Shown: piece by piece, positions 11,285 through 55,567 of the stretch
How the letters are laid out: every line of letters starts with the position of its first letter
Position numbering within the stretch: the stretch's first letter is position 1
IMG/VR virus record: IMGVR_UViG_3300021197_001653
Location: 40,435-104,434 of that record
Strand: one strand, 5' to 3'
Origin: a virus
Length of the DNA: 64,000 nucleotides
Notes under the pieces: generated by a model
Database searches by the model: none
The model's input: only the letters and a program-made list of their open reading frames with translations
What the model was told of the DNA's origin: nothing
Made by a program: the position numbers and the translations under genes

Positions 11285-14200
11285 ATGGGAAAAATATGTA
11301 ATAGACTTGCTGTAACTAATAACCAGCATTCAGAACTATTTAATACTTTACTTAGTATTGCTAATAACAATGAAGAGTTAGCAGATGAGTATTATGCTTT
11401 TTTTAAGAGTGAAAGATTTATTAATGATTTTGGTGATTATCAAGATCAATATACTAATTTTGATGCTGCTAATTTAAAAATTAGTGAAAAAAGATTAGAT
11501 ATTAATCATGAACCTAAGTTATTTCTTGATAAAAAATATAATAGTTATTACTATAAGAATAAACATCATAAAAAAGTATATTACCCTAGTAGTACTAGAA
11601 ATTTAAATGTATATTATTCAAGTGAAGCTATTGACTCTATATCTAAAATTTTAGCATTAGACTTTTTAAAACCAAGAATAGGTGATGATTTTAATGATTT
11701 AAATCTAAATAAAGAAAAAGGTAGATTAATAGATAGTATTAAAAATAAATTAGAGTCTAAAATTAAAGAACTTAAATCAGGCCCTAGTATTATAGAAAAA
11801 ACTAAAGGTGGGGTATTAGAATTAACATTACCTCACTTAAATGAATGGGTTAAGAATGTTGAAGATTATTATAAATCTATTAATTTAAACTACGTTGAAA
11901 CAACTGAACAAGATGATGTTGATGAAGATACATCAGCCCCTGGTCATGCATATGGGTTATCTTCTTTTGAAAAGAATTCAAAAGATAATGTTACGAGTAA
12001 TATAAAACTTAGACTTTCTTTATTGCAACATGGGACAGAGGTGGATTATTTATTTTATGAACCTATATTAATATCTTTTGATGAAGTCAATAGTTCTTTA
12101 CAGAAAACTTTAACTAATAGTATTGCTTTAATGAAAAATGGTCAACAAGAAGACTTGTTTGAAATATATAAGCAAGAGATACATACATTATCATTAAAAA
12201 AACCTTATTTAAAATCTTTAACAGCTCAATTAGATAATATTACTGATATTAATTTAAAGTCTCAATTTGTAAGAGCATTTAATCTAGATAAAAATAATTT
12301 TATAGGTACAATATATGATATAACTAAAGACAATATTATTGTAGATGTATTAAATTTATCTGATGTTGGCTCTAAAACCAATATGGTTAAAAATAACTGG
12401 ACATATTCTTTTATTAAAACTGTATCAAATTCTAATCTTGAGATTGATGAGGCATCTATTACTAAGATAAATGATATAGAATCTGCTTTTAAAGGATTTT
12501 ATGGTGATAAAAATAGTGGTTTTAGAAAAGATGTATATAAAGGTACTGTAAACCTAGAAAGGGCTAGTGATGAAATTAGAAATATATTAAATGACTTAGG
12601 TATAAATACAACTGAAAATGGATTTAATCATTATTTAGATGGTTTAGAAACTAGTACAGCTGATAAAGATTTAAGAATAGAAAACTTAAGTAATTTATTA
12701 TCTAGTGTTAATTATTTATTTAAGAGTTTAAAAACTATAACTACTAAGAATTATAAAGATATTTTAAATAGTCAGAATGAAATAACAAACTTAGCTAAGG
12801 CTGAGTCATTCTTTATTTCAGAAGGTTCTGACGCATCTATATTTTCAGTAGGTAAATCTAAATGGGTTTATTCTAACCCTTCTTACTTATCTAATAAGGT
12901 AAAAGAATGGAATAAGGATATTACATATTTAGATAATCATTTCAATGCTAGTGAATTTAATAAAGGTTCTCATTATATGTCTACCATGTTAAACACTCCT
13001 AGTTTAGTTAAAAATCTTACTTTAAATGTATTTAATTCACTGCAAGTAAAAAATGACGCTGTCAATGCTAGTGATGGTAAAACATTATCTAAGAATGATG
13101 CACTTGCAGATTCATATAATAAAATATTAGGTTATAAAAAACCAGGTGGGAAGTCTTATTTTAATACTCCTACACCAGCAGATAAATCAACTCAATATCA
13201 AATAGGTATTCCTAATGAGCTAATGGTGGAAACTAATGCTTCATTTGATAGAGATACTAATCAAGTTGTTATAAATGATTCAGCTTATGAAATATTAGTA
13301 AGCTATATTGTATCTGAACATAATAGAATGAGAAAAGTTCAGAAGGAGATTGATTCTGGTACAACTACAATGATAGAGCATTACCATATAGGTAGAAAGA
13401 ATGGTATTAAGTTTCAAAGTATTCCTGAATTAAACCATGATAATTTTAAAAACTTAGGTTTTAATTTTGAACTATATGGTGAGAGTGGAGAAGTTTTAGA
13501 TATTGATTTAACTGTTGAAGCTAAAGCTCAAATTAAAGAATATATTAAAGATATAGTATCTAAAAACATTAAAGTTTTTTATGATACATTATTTGATAAG
13601 AAGTTGTTATCATATAATGCAGATGGTGTGATTATCAATAAAGGTATTGACAGTAGTATATGGTCTTCATATGATTCTAGATTTAGACCATTAAAGGTTG
13701 CGTCAGATATATTTATAAATGGTTTAATATCTCAGATAGAATATTCTAAAATGTTCTCTGGTGATGTAGCTTATTATAAAAATGCAGATGATTATAAGAA
13801 AAGAATACCTGCTACATATACAGATGGGTTGCAGTTATACACGCAATCATATGATAACCCTGTTGATCAAAATAAAGAAAATTATTTTAACATTGCTGTT
13901 ATCAATAATGTAGTAGTAAAAACACCTTATTATGAAGAATTAGTAAAATTAGTAGGTGAAGATATAGCTAGTAAATATTCTGACATTAACTCTACTGATG
14001 CACAAGCATGGATTACTCCTGAAAGATGGAAGTTTTTAATGGTAAGGTTAGGTAAATGGTCAAATGTACATGATTCAATTTATGACAAGTTTAATAACCC
14101 AAATGCTGAATATACTTCTACTGAATTAAAACAAGTAGCACAACCCTTAAAAGGTGTGTATTTTGAGATTAATAATGGTGTACCTGTTTACTTAAAGTAT

Positions 14201-17200
14201 TCACAAGCTGTATTAGTTCCTAATATGGTTAGAAATAATAAAGGGTTGCAGACATTAGTTAATAAAATGAAGGATGCTGATATACAAGAACTTATTACAA
14301 TTGATGGTGTAAAAGTTGGTGCAGCAAAACCTGTTAAAACTCATACTGATGAAGGTATTGTTTTAAATAACTTTGAATTAACACCATATCAATTAAAGAA
14401 TAGTGGTTGGAAACTTCAACAAGATTTACCTATTAAGACATTCAAGTTAACTGAAGTAGGTTCTCAGATTCAAAAGAATATATATGCTGGTTTATCAAGT
14501 AATTTAGATAAAACATTTGATGTTAATGATATTGAAATGAGTGGTTCTGAATTAATAGAATACATTAATAATATAGTAGCTCAATTATCTAATAAAGGTA
14601 AGGATAGATTCACAAAGGAATTTGATGTTGATGATAATAATAAAATCAATAATATAGACGCTCTTACTGATACACTATTAGATGAATTAAAAACTAGAGG
14701 TGCTTCTAAAAATGTCATACAAGCATTAGAAAGTGGTATTACCCCTTATGCTATACCTGGATATCAGCAAAAAATACAGAATGTATTTGCATCTATTGTA
14801 TTAAAGAGATTAGTTAAAATTAAGACTAATGGTGGTTCATTTATTCAGATGTCTAACTATGGTTTAAATAAAGATGAAGCTGATAATAAAGGTGTTATAT
14901 GGACTCCATGGGCTAAGGAAACTACACATGAATATGAGGTTATAGGTGAAAAGAATGGTAGACAGATAATTAGACCTGCTGGTATGTTAATCAGTGGTAG
15001 TTTAATAGCTAAATATATACCTAACTATAAGAAATATAGTACTGCTCAATTATTTGGAACAAAAGAGAATGATTATAAAGATGCAATGATAGATAAGAGA
15101 ATTCTAGATTCAATAATAGGATATAGAATACCTAATCAGCATTTAGCGTCTAATGATGCATTAGAGGTTGTTGGTATATTACCAGAAGAAATGGGTGATA
15201 CTGTTATTGCTTATACAGGTATTACAACTAAGACTGGTAGTGATTTTGATATTGATAAGATGTATCTAATGATTCCTTCAATTAAAGCTATAAGAAAAGA
15301 TGGTGACGTATCTAAATTAAAGTATGTAGAAGATGAAGGTCTTAGTTTGGAAGATCAATCATTAGCTCAGTTACAAAATAGTTTAATTCAAGCTTATAAG
15401 GCTGTTATATTAAATGAAAATGTGATTGAAGATGTAATGACACCCATTGATTTTGATTTTATTAAAGATGATATATTAGATTTATTTCCTAAAGATCCTA
15501 TTGAAGCATATGATACATTTAATATCAATAAAGATGTAGATTTAAAATATGAATTTATGGCTGGAAACGCTGGTATTGGTCAAACTGCAAATATGCTAGT
15601 TGATCATAACAGAGGGTTAATGGCTGATATATATTTAAATGATACTGATATTGGAATGGGTTTTAAAAATGATAAAGGTTTCACTACATTTGACACAGAA
15701 TACTCTGAAGTATTAAATGAAATAAAAGACCCTAAATTAAAAAGTATTAAAGTAGCACATTCTTTATCTGCAATAATGAATGGTTACGTTGATATAGCTA
15801 AAGATTCATATATAACAAGAGGTAACTGGACTACACAAACAGCTAATGTTGGATTTATGTTAATAAGAGCTGGTGTACATCCATTTAAGGTGAATGCTTT
15901 ATTAGGACAACCTATTATTAGAGAGTATGTTGATTTTATAACTAACTCAGAATCTAAGATAATTAATGAAACTAGTAATATTAAAGATAAGTTTAAACAA
16001 GAACAAATAAGAAAATTATTAGAAAACGATACATCAATAATTACAATTAATGGTATATCATTAACTAAACGTAAGATATATAAATTAGTAGATAGTAAAC
16101 CAACCCTTAATAAATTAGCTACAATATTTAAATTAAAAGAAGCTGATGAAGAAGTGTTAGATTTATATAAGCATTTAAAGTCATTAGATAAATTATTTGA
16201 AGATACTAAATCTGCTAATGCTAGTAACTTATCATTAAAAGATCTTAGATACAATGTAAAGAATCCTAAGTCTGCTAAGTTACAACCTGAGATATTAAAT
16301 TGGTTCTATGAATTAGTAGATAACTCTAAGAAACTAGTGGAGAACATTAATGCATCTAAAGTTGATGTGAATGGTTACGGTAAGAATATTGGATCTTTAA
16401 TTGTTACAACTAATCTAATAAATAAATTATTAAATGAGAAAGAAAGTGGTAGTTTTATGGGGTATGCTTCAAAGCTTCATTATAATAATGAACCAACAAT
16501 ACTAGGGGCTTATACTGAGAATTCAGTTAATTATATTAAAGATGTAATGCAAGCTAATCCATTATTTTTTGCTACGGCTAATCAGTCAATAATTAATACA
16601 TTTAATGATATTTCTAAGAGTATTACTAATGAAAATTTAATGAATCCTAAACTAGCTGATAAATTAGAAAAAGATTTTTATTCATATTTATTAAGTGGTT
16701 TTGAACCATTAAAAACTAGCCAAGAAGAGAAAGAAGATTTAATAAATAATTTACCTGATAGATTAATGGCTTATTCTAAAGAAAATGAAAACTTATTCAT
16801 AAAAGAATTAGATATTAAATTAGGGGATGATAGTATTTTTTATATTACAATGAATAATAAGAAAAAAACTCCTGAATATCAAACTGAATTAACAAATGCA
16901 TGGTTAGATTTAATAGTTGAAAATAAAAAATTAGGTAATGATTTAATTAAATATTCTTATTTAACATCTGGATTTAAAATGAATATAAATCAGTTTTATA
17001 CTTATATACCATATCAATTCTTTGCTGAAGGGCATATAGATGAGTATATTAATGAAACATTATTTGAGTTGAGTAATTCAGATATATCAGATAAACAATT
17101 TAGTACACAATTCTTTTCTCATAATATTACTGATTACCAACTTGTAGGTAAAATACATGGTAGTCAATTGAATAAAAAAGGATTATCTAATCCAGCAGGT

Positions 17201-40288: not shown

Positions 40289-40903
40289 TTATAGTGTTGT
40301 CCAATCAGTAGTTGTACCAGCAGCGGTTGGACTTGTTATATCCATTCCTGAAGCAGGTAAACTATCATCATCTGCAACAACTCTAATCATTAAATCATTA
40401 GCACCTTCCCTTAATTTAGTAGAACCGTCTTCACTAGCTCGTTCAATAAAGTTAAAATATCTAAGATTTAAATAACCTTTTTTACTTGGATAATCTTTAG
40501 TTCCATAAGTAACAAATACGTTAAATTTGGAATCACCAGCATTATCACCAATTATTTTAAAAAGTATATCGACAATACTTTTTGGAGTCATCCCAGCTGT
40601 ATCAGGGTATTTGTATGTAGGTCCTACTACAGCTCGTGCTATATGTAAAACCCTACTTATTTCCCTTTTTGCAGCTACTTTAACTTGCTCCTCAGTTTGT
40701 CCATCTCTTTTTGTTGGATAATTAAACCAACCTGTTAATAATCCACCATCATTATCTTTTACAATTAATTTATAAGGTGAATTTGTTTCTGGCTCACCAG
40801 GTTTTCTAACATCAACTGATATAGTGACATTTTTTGCTACCCCTGCTGCTCCGTTATTAAAAATTGTAGTTTCCTTGAAATCTTTCCCATTTAAATCAAA
40901 CAT
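40289..40903 (-). CDS. Putative single-stranded DNA-binding protein
   Basis: 204 aa, acidic flexible tail ending DWTTL. Position between the AAA ATPase and primase as in crAss-like replication modules. Confidence 0.55.
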   Translation of the reverse strand: MFDLNGKDFKETTIFNNGAAGVAKNVTISVDVRKPGEPETNSPYKLIVKDNDGGLLTGWFNYPTKRDGQTEEQVKVAAKREISRVLHIARAVVGPTYKYPDTAGMTPKSIVDILFKIIGDNAGDSKFNVFVTYGTKDYPSKKGYLNLRYFNFIERASEDGSTKLREGANDLMIRVVADDDSLPASGMDITSPTAAGTTTDWTTL

Positions 40904-50705: not shown

Positions 50706-51653
50706 TTATCTTATTGTATTTACAAAATCATAAACTTGTTTCATATTTACTTCATCTTTTGGTAAAGGTAGCTCTTTAAAGTAATTCACTGCACCATCAA
50801 AATATAATGGGCAGATAGTACCAGCACCGCCTTCTCTACCACCTAAAATTTCTAAGAATCTAATATTATCTTTAAAAAATCTAATATCATAATCTTTGTA
50901 TTCAGGTATTTCATGTCTAAAAGGATTAAATAATCCTAATATAACATCAGCATCTCTCTGGGTAAGTTTACAATCCCCTAATCCATCTAAACTAGGTTTA
51001 AGCTTGTTAGCTTTAAAATTATCTAAACTCTCTTGAGAAGATGCTTGCTGTTGTATTACTACAAGTGAATATTTATATTTGTTACGTAGTCTAATTAAAT
51101 AATCTGACGATAATTTAACAATAGATGCATGTAAACCCATTTGTTTACCATCTATACTCTCCGTGGAGATTAAACTAATATGGTCAATAAAAACCATAAC
51201 ATATTCATCTGGATCATTTGGTTCATAATAATCATCAATCTCTTTTTCAAAGAGCTCACCTGTTTTATTATTTACAAATTCAACTTTCTTAGTATGTTGT
51301 GTTCCATTATTAACCGCATATTCTCTAACAAATTTATATATACCTGTTGGATTTCTAATATCATCAATGAATTCAACTATTTCTTCAATTTTCTCAAAAT
51401 AAGGTTTATATTTCTCAATAACTTCTAATACGTTATCTGGTAATACATTATCTTCCTTGGTACTTCTTAAATCTTTAGGTGCTATTCTTATTCCCTCTTT
51501 TACATAAAGTATATTAGAGAATGCTGATAACATTTTTTGTTCTTTAGACATCTCTAAAGTAAAATAAAATATTTTTAATCTTATGTTTAAGTCGTTATCT
51601 ACGACTTGTTGAATAGTATTATACAGATAAAGCCAATCAGCTATCTGCGTTTT
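50706..51653 (-). CDS. dnaB: Replicative DnaB-like helicase, exon 2 (315 aa, begins at Walker A Lys)
   Basis: Begins KTQIADWL. FTLEMS, FIDHISL, VIQQQ, DCKLTQRDADVILGLF, REGG. Confidence 0.9.
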   Translation of the reverse strand, partial: KTQIADWLYLYNTIQQVVDNDLNIRLKIFYFTLEMSKEQKMLSAFSNILYVKEGIRIAPKDLRSTKEDNVLPDNVLEVIEKYKPYFEKIEEIVEFIDDIRNPTGIYKFVREYAVNNGTQHTKKVEFVNNKTGELFEKEIDDYYEPNDPDEYVMVFIDHISLISTESIDGKQMGLHASIVKLSSDYLIRLRNKYKYSLVVIQQQASSQESLDNFKANKLKPSLDGLGDCKLTQRDADVILGLFNPFRHEIPEYKDYDIRFFKDNIRFLEILGGREGGAGTICPLYFDGAVNYFKELPLPKDEVNMKQVYDFVNTIR

Positions 51654-51660
51654 CAATTTG

Positions 51661-52053
51661 TTACTTATTAAATATAGAATTGTATAGATTTTCTAAATAC
51701 TCTGGTGTATATTTACCATAATTTGAAAATCTAAAGGTGTTTTTATACCTATTAGTTACTCGTTCTTCAGATACACACCAAAATTTATGTTTATGAGTAT
51801 ATTTGAAAAACACTATATTTTTAATATCAGGGCATCTATATGCTCTAAATTGTTGTGATACTAAGCATTCCATTAATAATGCTTCACTCACACCTTTAAA
51901 TCTATATAATTTAAATAAATCTCCAAAAGTTCTTCTTGCATATATTTTATCATCATTTTTAAAAAGTTTAAATTTAAAATAATCTAAAACTACATTTCTA
52001 GGTCTACTTGGGCATTTATTATTTAAGTCCTTTATTAATTCTTCTTTATTCAT
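51661..52053 (-). CDS. Intron cargo ORF (P9.2-type loop), family A hypothetical
   Basis: 130 aa. RRTFGDL...YRCPDIKNIVF. Almost wholly enclosed by the 13-bp stem. Confidence 0.65.
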   Translation of the reverse strand: MNKEELIKDLNNKCPSRPRNVVLDYFKFKLFKNDDKIYARRTFGDLFKLYRFKGVSEALLMECLVSQQFRAYRCPDIKNIVFFKYTHKHKFWCVSEERVTNRYKNTFRFSNYGKYTPEYLENLYNSIFNK

Positions 52054-52127
52054 TTTTTTCTATATTTAATTGGTTCAGTCATTTCTGCTGAACTCTATAA
52101 TTTATAATAAAAAAATATAAAAATTAA

Positions 52128-52769
52128 TTAATCAACACAATTTAATAACCATGTTTTAATAGTATTACCACTGTTGCTATTTATAGCTGTTTCATGAGAG
52201 TCTGTTAACTCTTCTAACCCAGTATCAACAATACTAAAACGATTATGATTTGTATTTGTAGATAACACTGCCATACAACTAGTGTTCTCTTTAATTAATT
52301 CAAAACAAGTTTTAGATATATGTGTTGTTAATTCACGTCTTTCCTCTGCATTTATAGTATTAAACCTTTGACCAAAGTTATAAATAGATGTAGAAAAAGC
52401 ATTTAAATTATATATTTGATTTACACCACAACTAATCTCTGAACCACTTAAAGATAAACTGGGGCTAGCATTATAATTTCTTCTACCAACATTATATGTG
52501 ATATCAAAATCATATGCACGACCTACATCCATATTAATAACAAGCGCTTCTTTAATAGAATCTAATGTTGGATTAACAACAGGTTCTTCTACTACTTCCT
52601 CAACAATTGCTTGTCTAATTTCTTCAAATAATTTCTTTGAATAAGAAGCTATTTTATTCTTATCATTTTCTATATTATACATATCTCTTGTACTCCCTAA
52701 TATAATATAAGGATTACCTTTTGTTAATGCATAATTTTTAGCATTAATACAAGTTACTTGTTTTGCCAT
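52128..52769 (-). CDS. Intron cargo ORF (L9), family B hypothetical
   Basis: 213 aa. N-terminal CI....LTKG..Y SH3-like module, C-terminal SCGVNQIYNL...NSNSGNTIKTW. Confidence 0.65.
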   Translation of the reverse strand: MAKQVTCINAKNYALTKGNPYIILGSTRDMYNIENDKNKIASYSKKLFEEIRQAIVEEVVEEPVVNPTLDSIKEALVINMDVGRAYDFDITYNVGRRNYNASPSLSLSGSEISCGVNQIYNLNAFSTSIYNFGQRFNTINAEERRELTTHISKTCFELIKENTSCMAVLSTNTNHNRFSIVDTGLEELTDSHETAINSNSGNTIKTWLLNCVD

Positions 52770-52828
52770 TTTAATTAATTTTTTAAATTTTTATTGTTTA
52801 TATTTATAGTTCGGACTGTCTCATCAAC

Positions 52829-53086
52829 CTAACTACACATACATGTATTGTCTCCTCCACATTTACATTCATTAGGTTGCTCATTGTCAGTCTCTACACC
52901 GTTTTGTAATTTTTTTAATATTAAATATTTAATATCCTTAAAAGGAGTATCTTTTTCAATATCCTTTTTTACTAGAGATATTAAATAACCAATATCTTTA
53001 TTATCAATTGACGGCACGGGATTGTCTTTAATTTTGTCATTTTTTATGACACTTTTAACTTGCTCACTATTTTTATCGCTAGTCAT
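52829..53086 (-). CDS. ORF reading through the intron catalytic core (coding status uncertain)
   Basis: 85 aa. ATGA overlap with the upstream stop. Spans P5'/P4'/P6/P7/P8 and stops in the P8 3' strand. Confidence 0.35.
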   Translation of the reverse strand: MTSDKNSEQVKSVIKNDKIKDNPVPSIDNKDIGYLISLVKKDIEKDTPFKDIKYLILKKLQNGVETDNEQPNECKCGGDNTCMCS

Positions 53087-53721
53087 TTTATTCTAGGTAT
53101 TAATAAATTTCTTTGTAATTCTGCATATTTTTCAGATTTACTTACCATTAATTTAATAGTACTTATCGTTAACTTATTTTTAGAAACAGGTTTAAATAAA
53201 TTATTTATATAACCATTTGTATTCAATTTGTCAATAAATTGATTCCAGCTTCTATATGTATAAAAATGATTTAGTCTATTATTTACAGGTACAACATCCA
53301 TACTATTACGAATACTTGAACCACCACTTGAATAATGGGCTAATAAAATAGCATTATATGGTTTCACACCATTATCTATCAAATCAACCATTTTAACTAA
53401 TATTTTCTTTAATGTTCTAGTTCTAACATACCTACATAATTTAAAAAAGATTCTTTGATTTTTATTTTTAAATTTAATTTTACTTTCAAATATAAAACTT
53501 TCTTCTTTAATATTATGCAATTGCATTATTTTATCAAATTTCTTAAATAAAGTAATTAATAAAGTACATTCTTCTTTACTACCTGTAAATTTATGAATAT
53601 GGTGATTTTGATAACCATCACTACAATTCATATACATATGTATACTATATACATTACCACTACGCCATTTATTATTACACGATGATGGTATTCTAGTCAT
53701 TTTTGTTAAACTTGTTGCCAT
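53083..53721 (-). CDS. Intron cargo ORF (L5), hypothetical
   Basis: 212 aa between P5 strands UCUUUAA (53733-53739) and UUAAAGA (53025-53031). Confidence 0.65.
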   Translation of the reverse strand: MATSLTKMTRIPSSCNNKWRSGNVYSIHMYMNCSDGYQNHHIHKFTGSKEECTLLITLFKKFDKIMQLHNIKEESFIFESKIKFKNKNQRIFFKLCRYVRTRTLKKILVKMVDLIDNGVKPYNAILLAHYSSGGSSIRNSMDVVPVNNRLNHFYTYRSWNQFIDKLNTNGYINNLFKPVSKNKLTISTIKLMVSKSEKYAELQRNLLIPRIK

Positions 53722-53759
53722 TTTTTATTTTTTTAAAGAGTTTCCCCGTTAGCTAATAT

Positions 53760-54242
53760 TTATAAATTTAATTGATCATTTCGTATATCAATTAATTGAT
53801 TATACGAAATACCATCCACTCCTACTTTCTCACCAAAGTATTTTTTACTATAATTGGTGATGAAATTTTTTCTACAAGGATTATCCTTACTAAACCCACC
53901 TACAACAACAAACTTATTTACTTGGGTACACCATACTAAATAGCATCTATTATCATGATTTAATTCTGCTACTATTCTGATTACTGCGTCAATAGTTGTT
54001 ATTGGAAACCTACTTCTAACGATAGAAGTTAATTCAGATATAGACCTACTTGATGATCTATTACATTGAATATTACCATTCTTGTGATATGTGTTTGGTC
54101 TTTTTTCTAAAAATTGTCTTAAGAAACTTTTTCTTGTCTTTGTTAATGGAATATCTGTTTCATTAACATAAATTATTTTCGTGATAGTTTTCATTCTTAT
54201 TATTAATATTAACCTCCAAAAATATCTAATAACTTTTTTCAT
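53760..54242 (-). CDS. Intron cargo ORF (between P2 and P3), family A hypothetical
   Basis: 160 aa. QCNRSSSRSISEL...SRFP...VWCTQVNK. Confidence 0.65.
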   Translation of the reverse strand: MKKVIRYFWRLILIIRMKTITKIIYVNETDIPLTKTRKSFLRQFLEKRPNTYHKNGNIQCNRSSSRSISELTSIVRSRFPITTIDAVIRIVAELNHDNRCYLVWCTQVNKFVVVGGFSKDNPCRKNFITNYSKKYFGEKVGVDGISYNQLIDIRNDQLNL

Positions 54243-54271
54243 GTTATTTATTTAAAAGTTAGATTGTTTAT

Positions 54272-55177
54272 TTATTTTTTTATTGATGCATATGCTTCTG
54301 GCATCACACTTCTTTCTGCAAAATTTATAAATGGTTCTACTGCTTCCGATTTTGTTTTAGATAAATCAGCTATAGCTTCTTCCATTAATCTTCCTTTTTT
54401 TTCTTCTTTGGAATTCTGAGTTTTAAGATTATTTTCTTTTGATACTTCTTTTTCTATTTTTTTTTCATTTAATACATGTTCTCCAGGATTAAAATGATAT
54501 ACATTTATTGTATTTTTGGAATTATTATTAACATACGAGTATTGCAATTGAAATCCTAATCTTTCAACAAAATCTTTTGCGGTACTTTGGTTATCTGTAA
54601 TATGTGCAATTTTTGCAGCTCTATCAACATTTAAATGATCAAAGATAATTTTATAATCACTTATTATTAAATTTTTATATCTACAATATACACCACTACT
54701 ATTCTCAAAGTTAAATAATATTTGACAACCACAACAATCTGAATGTGGTGTTTGTTTAAATAAACTTATACCCGGTCCATTATTTTTAAATATTGATAGT
54801 TTACCATTAGAATCTTTTATACGAACAAATGAGGTATCACTAATACTTATTTGACTACTTCGTGAATTTGAATTTGTTACTTTTAAATGTCTTTGATACC
54901 ACGGTTCATTTAATACCATATCATTTTCATTTATTATTCTATTTATTATAACGCCATCAGATAGTTTTAAACCTTCTCGTATATGAAATGCCCATGAATA
55001 TGTATATAATTCAGTTATAGGATGTTTAGAATTAGCAGGCCGACTACCTTTTTTATTATTTTGAAAAAAATAATATAGATTATTTAATTTAATTACATGA
55101 CCTATTGTATATGTGCCATTAATACTTCCTTCTACATGTATCTGATCATTATCTGATAATTTTTCTAGTTCTTTCAT
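54272..55177 (-). CDS. Intron cargo ORF (between P2 and P3), family B hypothetical with GNAT-like C-terminal motif
   Basis: 301 aa. YFFQN..GS...Y.YSW N-terminal module, DCCGCQILFNF, NQ..AKDFVERLGF, NNNSKNTINVY. Confidence 0.65.
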   Translation of the reverse strand: MKELEKLSDNDQIHVEGSINGTYTIGHVIKLNNLYYFFQNNKKGSRPANSKHPITELYTYSWAFHIREGLKLSDGVIINRIINENDMVLNEPWYQRHLKVTNSNSRSSQISISDTSFVRIKDSNGKLSIFKNNGPGISLFKQTPHSDCCGCQILFNFENSSGVYCRYKNLIISDYKIIFDHLNVDRAAKIAHITDNQSTAKDFVERLGFQLQYSYVNNNSKNTINVYHFNPGEHVLNEKKIEKEVSKENNLKTQNSKEEKKGRLMEEAIADLSKTKSEAVEPFINFAERSVMPEAYASIKK

Positions 55178-55227
55178 TTTTTATAATCTTTTTTCCATAT
55201 ATATTACTATATACAGGGGCAAAATCT

Positions 55228-55398
55228 ACCCACTTTACTATTCGCTGTTATAAGATAATATTTACCTTTTTCTATACCAGGTAATTCATTTTCAAATCTT
55301 GGTAAACCCCATGGTATACAATTTACCTTTCCAGATAGAATTCTATTTTTTCTATCTACTAAATTTTCATAAACTCTACTATATAATGTCTTTTTCAT
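55228..55398 (-). CDS. dnaB: Replicative DnaB-like helicase, exon 1 (57 aa, ends at Walker A Gly)
   Basis: MKKTLYSRV...NCIPWGLPRFE..LPGIEKGKYYLITANSKVG. The unspliced frame stops 6 codons into the intron. Confidence 0.9.
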
Positions 55399-55567
55399 AT
55401 ATTTTTTCATACAATATTTTAAGATATTCATTTTGTGCATGAATATCATATTTTCCTTTATTGTTAATAAATTGTGCTTTATTAACTTTTCTTCTACTTA
55501 ACGACGGTATAACTATATATTTTTCAGTATGATATACCGTTTTTATAAATTCTTCTAATGTTAACAT
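55379..55567 (-). CDS. Hypothetical protein
   Basis: 62-aa ORF coupled between the 55.6-kb gene and dnaB. Confidence 0.5.
   Translation of the reverse strand: MLTLEEFIKTVYHTEKYIVIPSLSRRKVNKAQFINNKGKYDIHAQNEYLKILYEKIYEKDII

Follow-up and report, generated by a model that had tools for sequence, protein, structure and literature searches.

A core-spanning open reading frame that is probably maintained by selection in td-like group I introns of marine crAss-like phages

We propose that an 85-codon open reading frame (ORF) that runs through the catalytic core of a td-like group I intron is probably kept open by selection, as one copy of a family-wide, core-spanning frame of such introns in marine crAss-like phages. 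Dual coding, in which one RNA stretch would serve as both ribozyme and message, is well supported by the comparison of related introns. A reading of this DNA from sequence alone had named dual coding as one of two possibilities, and it is strongly supported by frame conservation, gene-like codon usage and a Cys-pair signature in the P8-loop part of the peptide. We infer that the ORF is translated, that its peptide is functional and that its translation limits or times splicing. Overlap between an ORF and an intron core ("core creep") is already known; new here are its extent, covering both core domains, the family-wide conservation of phase, the two in-frame variable hairpins and the lack of a recognisable endonuclease.

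The window that we analysed is a stretch of 64,000 nucleotides (positions 40,435 to 104,434) of a 104,434-bp IMG/VR virus record, IMGVR_UViG_3300021197_001653, whose helicase is similar to the helicases found in crAss-like phages, Cellulophaga phage phi14:2 among them. The genetic code of the record is the standard one: 87% of the record is spanned by ORFs of 100 aa or more, TAG is the terminator of 10 of them, one tRNA-Met is present, and a search of the record for a suppressor tRNA found none. Read-through of TAG is ruled out by the absent suppressor tRNA and by the TAG codons that end these 10 long ORFs. All features described below, including the 85-codon ORF, lie on the minus strand.

The helicase insert and its group I features

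A DnaB-type helicase gene is interrupted within its Walker A codons, between G and KT, by a 3574-nt insert.

55207..55449, minus strand: helicase exon 1 ORF, reading ...ITANSKVG
51654..55227, minus strand: predicted td-like group I intron, 3574 nt; last base of exon 1 at 55228 (U of GGU), terminal G of the intron at 51654
50706..51653, minus strand: helicase exon 2, starting KTQIADW (PHROG 19, DnaB-like, E 1e-7)

The limits of the insert, 55227..51654, are set by an intron-less helicase allele (L005, reading ...ITANSKVGKTQIADW), and taking out these nucleotides rejoins ANSKVG-KTQ in frame. Neither the L005 nor the L022 helicase is interrupted at the insertion site. Exon 2 begins at 51653 (AAA ACG = K T), and its relatives are 68-82% identical. 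Introns occupy the identical helicase site in L003, L013, L014, L015, L018, L021, L026 and phi14:2. In L014 (after residue 105) and L023 (after about residue 36), exon 2 is broken again by inserts of ~1.1 kb, which are probably further introns.

As Rfam never detects the intron, we tested the features of a group I ribozyme one by one. RF00028 gave no match to the intron family, at the gathering threshold or at E<=10, in the window, 11 loci, L026 and the whole genome; the long insertion in every loop is the likely reason for this miss. RF00028 does match the neighbouring upstream tandem intron of L007 (L007:5672-5891, 96.5 bits). Two tandem group I introns lie in the helicase P-loop codons of L004 (~5428), L007 (~5944; also L012) and L008 (~5790; also L011), parted by a 9-nt micro-exon (AAAGTGGGT, AAAGTTGGT or AAAATTGGT) coding KVG or KIG.

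The intron elements outside the 85-codon ORF, or at its end, are as follows.

55195..55220, minus strand: P1 guide GCCC (55220..55217), pairing with exon GGGU, and P2 hairpin with a GUAA tetraloop
54417..54420, minus strand: P3 5' strand CUCA, within the 301-aa cargo ORF (54272..55177)
53733..53748, minus strand: P4 5' strand CGGGG (53748..53744) and P5 5' strand UCUUUAA (53739..53733)
52814..52834, minus strand: P8' AGUUAGGUU (52834..52826), J8/7 GAUGAG and P7' CAGUC; holds the TAG of the 85-codon ORF
52809..52804 with 52100..52095, minus strand: P9, CUAUAA with UUAUAG, flanking the 213-aa cargo ORF (52128..52769)
52073..52093, minus strand: P9.1 hairpin with loop CAGAAAUG

At the 5' junction, which follows GGGU, a GCCC located 7 nt downstream forms a P1 with U·G at the splice site, a pair found in 12/12 sequences. 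The P1 guide tracks the exon across host genes, with UUGGU/GCCAA, GCGU/GCGC and GGCGU/GCGCC besides GGGU/GCCC. In an alignment of 12 sequences, 92.8% of the P1 and P2 cells were paired, with compensatory changes in 9 of 13 pairs; pairing this high was reached by 0 of 500 shuffles, and slid controls were poor. P2 is a hairpin with a GNRA cap.

Covariation also supports P3, P4, P5, P7 and P8, and with them a conserved P3-P8 core that includes the P3/P7 pseudoknot. The P3 5' strand sits in a motif AA[UC]UC[ACU]GAAU past P2, and it covaries with its partner P3', the segment between P7 and P8, as four pair types (UUCA/UGAA, UUCC/GGAA, CUCU/GGAG and CUCA/UGAG). Placement of this strand next to P4 failed, as did an earlier split-P3 model; covariation locates it after P2, inside the 301-aa ORF. 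P4 occurs as three types (CGGGG/UCCCG, CGAGG/UCUCG and CGGUG/UACCG), P5 covaries in L026 (CCAUU/AAUGG), and the P9.1 stems covary. Pairing in P7 and P8 amounts to 98%, against poor slide controls, and the last P7 pair is AU in 8 and GC in 5 sequences. Relatives have a closed GUGA hairpin at the place of the window's ORF-bearing P9. In the window, and in those helicase relatives whose 3' junction was inspected, exon 2 (AAAAC.. or AAATC..) follows a terminal G. For comparison we took the T4 td sequence from the T4 record: the two introns have in common the motif ACGGGGAA (P4), the J8/7-P7'-P9 GUGA hairpin and a 14-nt identity over J5/4-P4'-P6 (AGACAATCCCGTGC / AGACAAUCCCGUGC). From these sequence features we conclude that the insert is a putative td-like group I intron, IA2-like by subgroup, with every loop occupied.

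Six ORFs (301, 160, 212, 85, 213 and 130 aa) occupy ~93% of the intron, with gaps of 7-74 nt.

54272..55177, minus strand: 301-aa cargo ORF
53083..53721, minus strand: 212-aa cargo ORF in loop L5, with homologues in L5 of L003 and L007
52128..52769, minus strand: 213-aa cargo ORF in P9
51661..52053, minus strand: 130-aa cargo ORF, ending 7 nt upstream of the 3' splice site, with homologues at the equivalent position in L014, L015 and L021

Individual cargo ORFs have homologues in the same loop across relatives, in mosaic combinations. The 3' part of the 301-aa ORF also overlaps the core, at the covariation-backed P3 5' strand and the hairpin that follows it, so overlap between ORF and core is not confined to the 85-aa ORF. 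Pfam and PHROG searches returned no family for any of the six ORFs (window 51661-55177, minus strand), the 85-aa ORF included. The same searches found no homing endonuclease domain (LAGLIDADG, GIY-YIG, HNH, His-Cys box or PD-(D/E)xK) in the 85-aa ORF, in 10 homologous core-spanning ORFs or in the five other cargo ORFs.

A cultured phage, Cellulophaga phage phi14:2, has this predicted helicase intron too, unannotated, at approximately 13150-15765 (L134 = NC_021806 11500-19500), and the literature searched did not mention the intron. Its predicted exon junction runs from ~13149 (..AAAGTGGGT) to ~15766 (AAATCACAA..) of NC_021806. Accordingly, g024 corresponds to exon 1, g025-g028 to cargo, with g027 (75 aa) as the counterpart of the 85-codon ORF, and g029 "DnaB" is a truncated exon 2 that lacks the first 33 exon-2 codons. 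This corrects the annotation of phi14:2-type helicases, which by this reading are intron-split and currently appear as a truncated DnaB and a "hypothetical" exon 1. Family members in L022, L025 and L027 (=L017) reside in other host genes, and their P1 guides fit those exons (GCGC.., GCCCC); such exon-adapted guides indicate mobility of the family, though no endonuclease is recognisable. Rfam tmRNA genes (58-75 bits) lie on three viral contigs with introns of this family (L017:8081-8424, L018:9765-10142 and L025:708-1042).

The core-spanning open reading frame

The ORF and the core elements inside it are listed here in the order of translation.

52829..53086, minus strand: 85-codon core-spanning ORF, ATG start, stop TAG at 52831..52829
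53031..53025, minus strand: P5'
53021..53017, minus strand: P4' ("Q")
53015..53013 with 52900..52898, minus strand: P6
53013..53031, minus strand: P5' UUAAAGA, J5/4 CAA, P4' UCCCG, U and P6 5' GCC, whose codons read K D N P V P
52903..53010, minus strand: L6, the P6 extension, a long imperfect hairpin that codes residues 27-61
52871..52900, minus strand: P6' GGU, J6/7 GUAGA, P7 5' GACUG, J7/3 ACAA, P3' UGAG and P8 5' AACCUAAU, translating as G V E T D N E Q P N
52892..52888, minus strand: P7 5' strand ("R")
52883..52880, minus strand: P3'
52878..52871, minus strand: P8 5' strand

The frame thus begins in L5, passes P5'-J5/4-P4'-P6, the P6 extension hairpin, P6'-J6/7-P7-J7/3-P3'-P8 and the P8 extension, and stops in P8'. 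These coordinates bear out the sequence-only reading, which had described a frame open through Q, P6, R (P7) and P8 to a TAG in the P8 3' strand. An unconstrained fold of 241 nt retrieves P6, P7 and P8. The ATGA overlap that was read at the start of the ORF is present as well: 53083..53721 and 52829..53086 have 4 bases in common, and by these coordinates the junction is predicted to join a translationally coupled gene pair. The accompanying statement that start-stop overlaps are common in this genome held only in part. Among 62 minus-strand neighbour pairs, 28 lie within -20 to +10 nt of each other, but just 3 ATGA and 2 one-base overlaps occur, in counts that rest on a crude ORF call.

An open frame of this length had been called improbable by chance, and in agreement with this only 21 of 200,000 sequences were free of stops when the 258 nt underwent mononucleotide shuffling. 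Between P4' and the stop, 6 and 12 stops interrupt the two alternative frames of this copy. We also scored codon usage with log-odds trained on the long genes of this genome. The ORF scored +0.40 per codon and its L6 part +0.59, compared with 0.60 ± 0.13 for real genes and -1.28 ± 0.39 for off-frames; none of the off-frame windows attained the score of the ORF.

Frame conservation, loop-encoded peptides and competing explanations

We scanned viral and ocean metagenome contigs with patterns made from the conserved sequences of P6'-P7 and P4' and so found homologous introns; most lie at the same helicase site and some in other genes. Frame conservation in homologous introns, a check that the sequence-only reading had proposed, gave a positive result. 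In introns with a long L6, the distance from P4' to P6' falls in one class mod 3 in 24/24, and 23/24 read without a stop through L6 and on into P7. From P4' into P6', these 24 introns contain 1 stop in the coding frame versus 115 and 175 in the other two (L108, an artefact of two adjacent GC-rich introns, was left out of this set). Their L6 interiors have a median identity of 57% and a maximum of 80%, and they form at least 10 clusters at 65% identity, so the 24 introns are not near-duplicates. From P4' to the stop, 13 homologues contain 0 stops in the coding frame versus 93 and 181 in the other two. Codon phase plays no part in RNA structure, so signals like these, tied to one phase, point to translation.

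Both ends of the ORF vary. Among the first 15 distinct family members, 14 have an ORF with an in-frame ATG, and in 8 of these 14 the AUG lies 3-8 codons ahead of P5'; the window ORF has a 19-codon lead, and the other 5 carriers have N-terminal extensions of 36-64 residues. Copies end in P8', in P7', within L8 or right after P7; L032 and L123 end just past P7, and L121 has a stop inside L6. In td-like relatives whose P6 is compact (28-53 nt), the phase is mostly lost and there is no ORF. One of them, L007, is the fifteenth member of the set above and lies at the same site; its frame is open for just 23 codons and lacks an ATG, so an intron of this family can do without the ORF. L049 has a 26-codon mini-ORF of core sequence only.

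At the protein level, the invariant columns of a 12-protein alignment are N22, V24, P25, G63, V64, T66, E69 and P71 only, and all of these are core-encoded. The remaining columns can hardly be aligned, and the loop-encoded parts vary in length and sequence. We therefore set aside the database "homologues" of the ORF as evidence for a protein: they are similar mainly at the core-encoded motifs, and so are mostly echoes of ribozyme conservation rather than independent protein evidence. Models of the 85-aa protein, with three helices, are of low confidence (AlphaFold2 pLDDT 59, ESM Atlas 0.44). Crude dN/dS of the loop-encoded parts was 0.25-1.5 in very small, partly saturated samples, the lowest value coming from the poorly aligned L8 of L018/L021.

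The L8 peptides have a distinct composition. They contain 6.0% Cys compared with 0.82% in the proteins of this genome (P about 2e-24), and 10 of the 24 L8 peptides carry two Cys pairs of varied spacing, including CxCx5CxC in the window ORF and CxxC..CxxC in phi14:2 g027. As a sequence signature, these pairs would make sense only at the level of a peptide, and the CxCx5CxC motif at the end of the 85-aa peptide probably binds metal. A 47-aa module is found in L6 of L025 and in L8 of L027 (BLASTP E 1e-7). The loops are also structured RNA. The window's L6 has a minimum free energy of -21.6 kcal/mol, a stability that none of 200 shuffles equalled (z -4.17). Each of the 13 tested L6 segments has a negative z-score (-1.4 to -4.7), and among long L8 segments the values go down to -6.4. 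Together, the structured loops and the kept phase identify L6 and L8 as hairpin extensions of P6 and P8 that are also held in frame.

These data bear on a reading in which the frame is open only for the passage of ribosomes and the peptide is irrelevant. Coupled translation would cover the nascent RNA across the 3.6-kb intron and could avert premature termination or decay before exon 2, or ribosomes could chaperone refolding of the core. An upstream ribosome is known to aid group I splicing (PMC3073962), ~93% of this intron lies under tightly packed ORFs, the core-encoded residues alone are invariant, and the loop-encoded sequence stays open at a crude dN/dS near 1. However, the Cys-pair enrichment of L8 and the module common to L6 and L8 are signals at the peptide level, and the compact relative L007 has an untranslated core. 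We regard this explanation as unlikely, though it merits consideration.

It is still less probable that the ORF is a functionless relic of neutral core creep whose copies are open for want of time. Core creep is established, with overlaps of up to 81 nt (PMC3073962), and the variable ORF ends and the stop acquired by L121 would fit such a history. Yet L6 is ~57% identical in at least 10 lineages and 23 of 24 copies are nonetheless stop-free, with 24 of 24 in phase, whereas the other frames meet a stop every 7-11 codons; the gene-like codon usage also argues against a relic.

An untranslated open frame that arose by chance or as a by-product of RNA constraints is very improbable. Core element 2 (P6'-P7) is open in one frame only, so any long open frame there must take that phase, and the loops are structured RNA. 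But RNA structure without a phase cannot give 1 stop versus 115 and 175, nor a uniform mod-3 class of L6 or a conserved AUG in L5, and shuffling gives this copy by itself a probability of 1e-4.

We consider it scarcely credible that there is no intron and that an inserted cassette left the helicase gene in pieces, with the ORF as an ordinary small phage gene: in T4-like phages genes split by free-standing endonuclease genes are known, and Rfam finds no group I intron at the locus, but the split falls between G and KT of Walker A, the insert is bounded by U·G/P1 and a terminal G, the core helices covary, the guide changes with the host gene and the core resembles that of T4 td.

Known overlaps and the probable consequences of translating the core

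Group I introns normally halt the exon frame early, which excludes ribosomes (PMC3073962), and the window intron does the same: the exon 1 frame enters it by 21 nt and is halted at a TAG (55209..55207) within P2. The closest comparison is T4 td with its ORF for I-TevI, which has the same core type and also overlaps core helices. There, an ORF in the P6 loop overlaps the core by 20 nt at its 3' end (P6a, P6.0 and P7; PMC3073962). In the account given by that review, ribosome occupancy of the td core sequence lowers splicing (Gibb & Edgell, reviewed in PMC3073962), so even an overlap much smaller than the one in the window impairs splicing when occupied. In contrast to td, the window ORF starts upstream in L5, crosses P5', P4', P6, P6', P7, P3' and P8 and ends in P8', whereas the I-TevI stop precedes P7; and unlike I-TevI, the 85-aa product has no endonuclease domain, and the majority of its conserved residues are dictated by the core. 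In the T4 td record (L029:13236-15113, minus strand), the I-TevI frame is open for 43 codons upstream of its ATG, to a TAA at intron nt 1-3, and this upstream frame reads P4' as D-N-P-V, in the same phase as the window family.

Other cases have been described as core creep (Edgell, Chalamcharla & Belfort 2011; PMC3073962). A LAGLIDADG ORF in the Synechococcus lividus LSU intron covers 81 nt over P6/P7/P3/P8/P9.0/P9, the largest of these overlaps, and a GIY-YIG ORF in B. thuringiensis nrdF overlaps by 56 nt, though the authors warn that many overlaps depend on uncertain ORF calls (PMC3073962). As in those introns, the ORF in the window and several catalytic-core helices use the same nucleotides: codons are common to core helices, ORF ends vary, and starts lie 3-64 codons ahead of P5'. 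The earlier cases are single recognisable homing endonucleases with their body in one loop, whereas the window family keeps one phase through both core domains and has no recognisable endonuclease fold. Among crAss-like phages, group I introns are known from the gut Delta and Zeta groups, where they were found via endonuclease domains (Yutin et al. 2021, PMC7886860). These self-splicing introns lie, as the window intron does, within core replication or structural genes; the present family differs in that it interrupts the P-loop codons of the helicase in marine phi14:2-like phages and bears cargo without a recognised domain.

Long structured intron RNA that doubles as codons also occurs in mitochondrial group I introns, in which ORFs in frame with the upstream exon run through core sequence. 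The products there are LAGLIDADG or GIY-YIG proteins, and their ORFs continue the exon frame; in the window, by contrast, the exon frame terminates in P2, and the ORF lies inside the intron with a predicted coupling to another cargo gene.

On the reading that we favor, that selection maintains the frame, translation would begin in L5, in this phage by ATGA termination-reinitiation from the 212-aa gene and in most relatives at an AUG a few codons upstream of P5'. The frame would then be read from P5' through the P8 extension hairpin and end at a stop codon within P8' (or P7'). Ribozyme core and codons would share one set of nucleotides, so that the core would fix the invariant residues (..DNPVPS.. 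and ..NGVETxxEQP..) and the two peripheral hairpins would encode the peptide segments that vary while staying in frame. Ribosomes that read through would melt the 3' strands of P5, P4, P6, P7, P3 and P8, and because they would unwind these helices, translation of the ORF and the catalytic fold would be mutually exclusive in any one RNA molecule. Helicase mRNA would come only from transcripts, or in time windows, in which the ORF is not being read, and the ATGA junction would send ribosomes from the 212-aa L5 gene directly into the core. Competition or temporal ordering between ORF translation and helicase splicing would be the most likely consequence. The sequence-only reading had suggested that ribosomes crossing the core exert translation-dependent control of helicase splicing; by analogy this is plausible, and it is mechanistically reasonable because ribosome occupancy of the core impairs splicing of T4 td.

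A broader reading joins these elements, and we advance it tentatively, as a rather unlikely extension. The intron family might be a systematic dual-coding platform in which the P6 and P8 extensions fold as hairpins and serve as in-frame slots that swap peptide modules (the 47-aa module, Cys4 knuckles), ribosome transit acts as a timer or switch for helicase splicing and the peptide possibly feeds back on its own intron.

As phi14:2 is cultured and strand-specific RNA-seq of its infection has been published (GEO GSE133609; bioRxiv 10.1101/2020.03.07.982082), the question can be put to test. Compared with earlier single cases with doubtful ORF calls, the family as a whole offers phase-specific conservation across both core domains, and it is a clean natural system in which one sequence is under both ribozyme and coding constraints. 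It also bears on how translation is reconciled with self-splicing where transcription and translation are coupled. As the host gene encodes the replicative helicase, any interplay between the two would touch the timing of phage replication.
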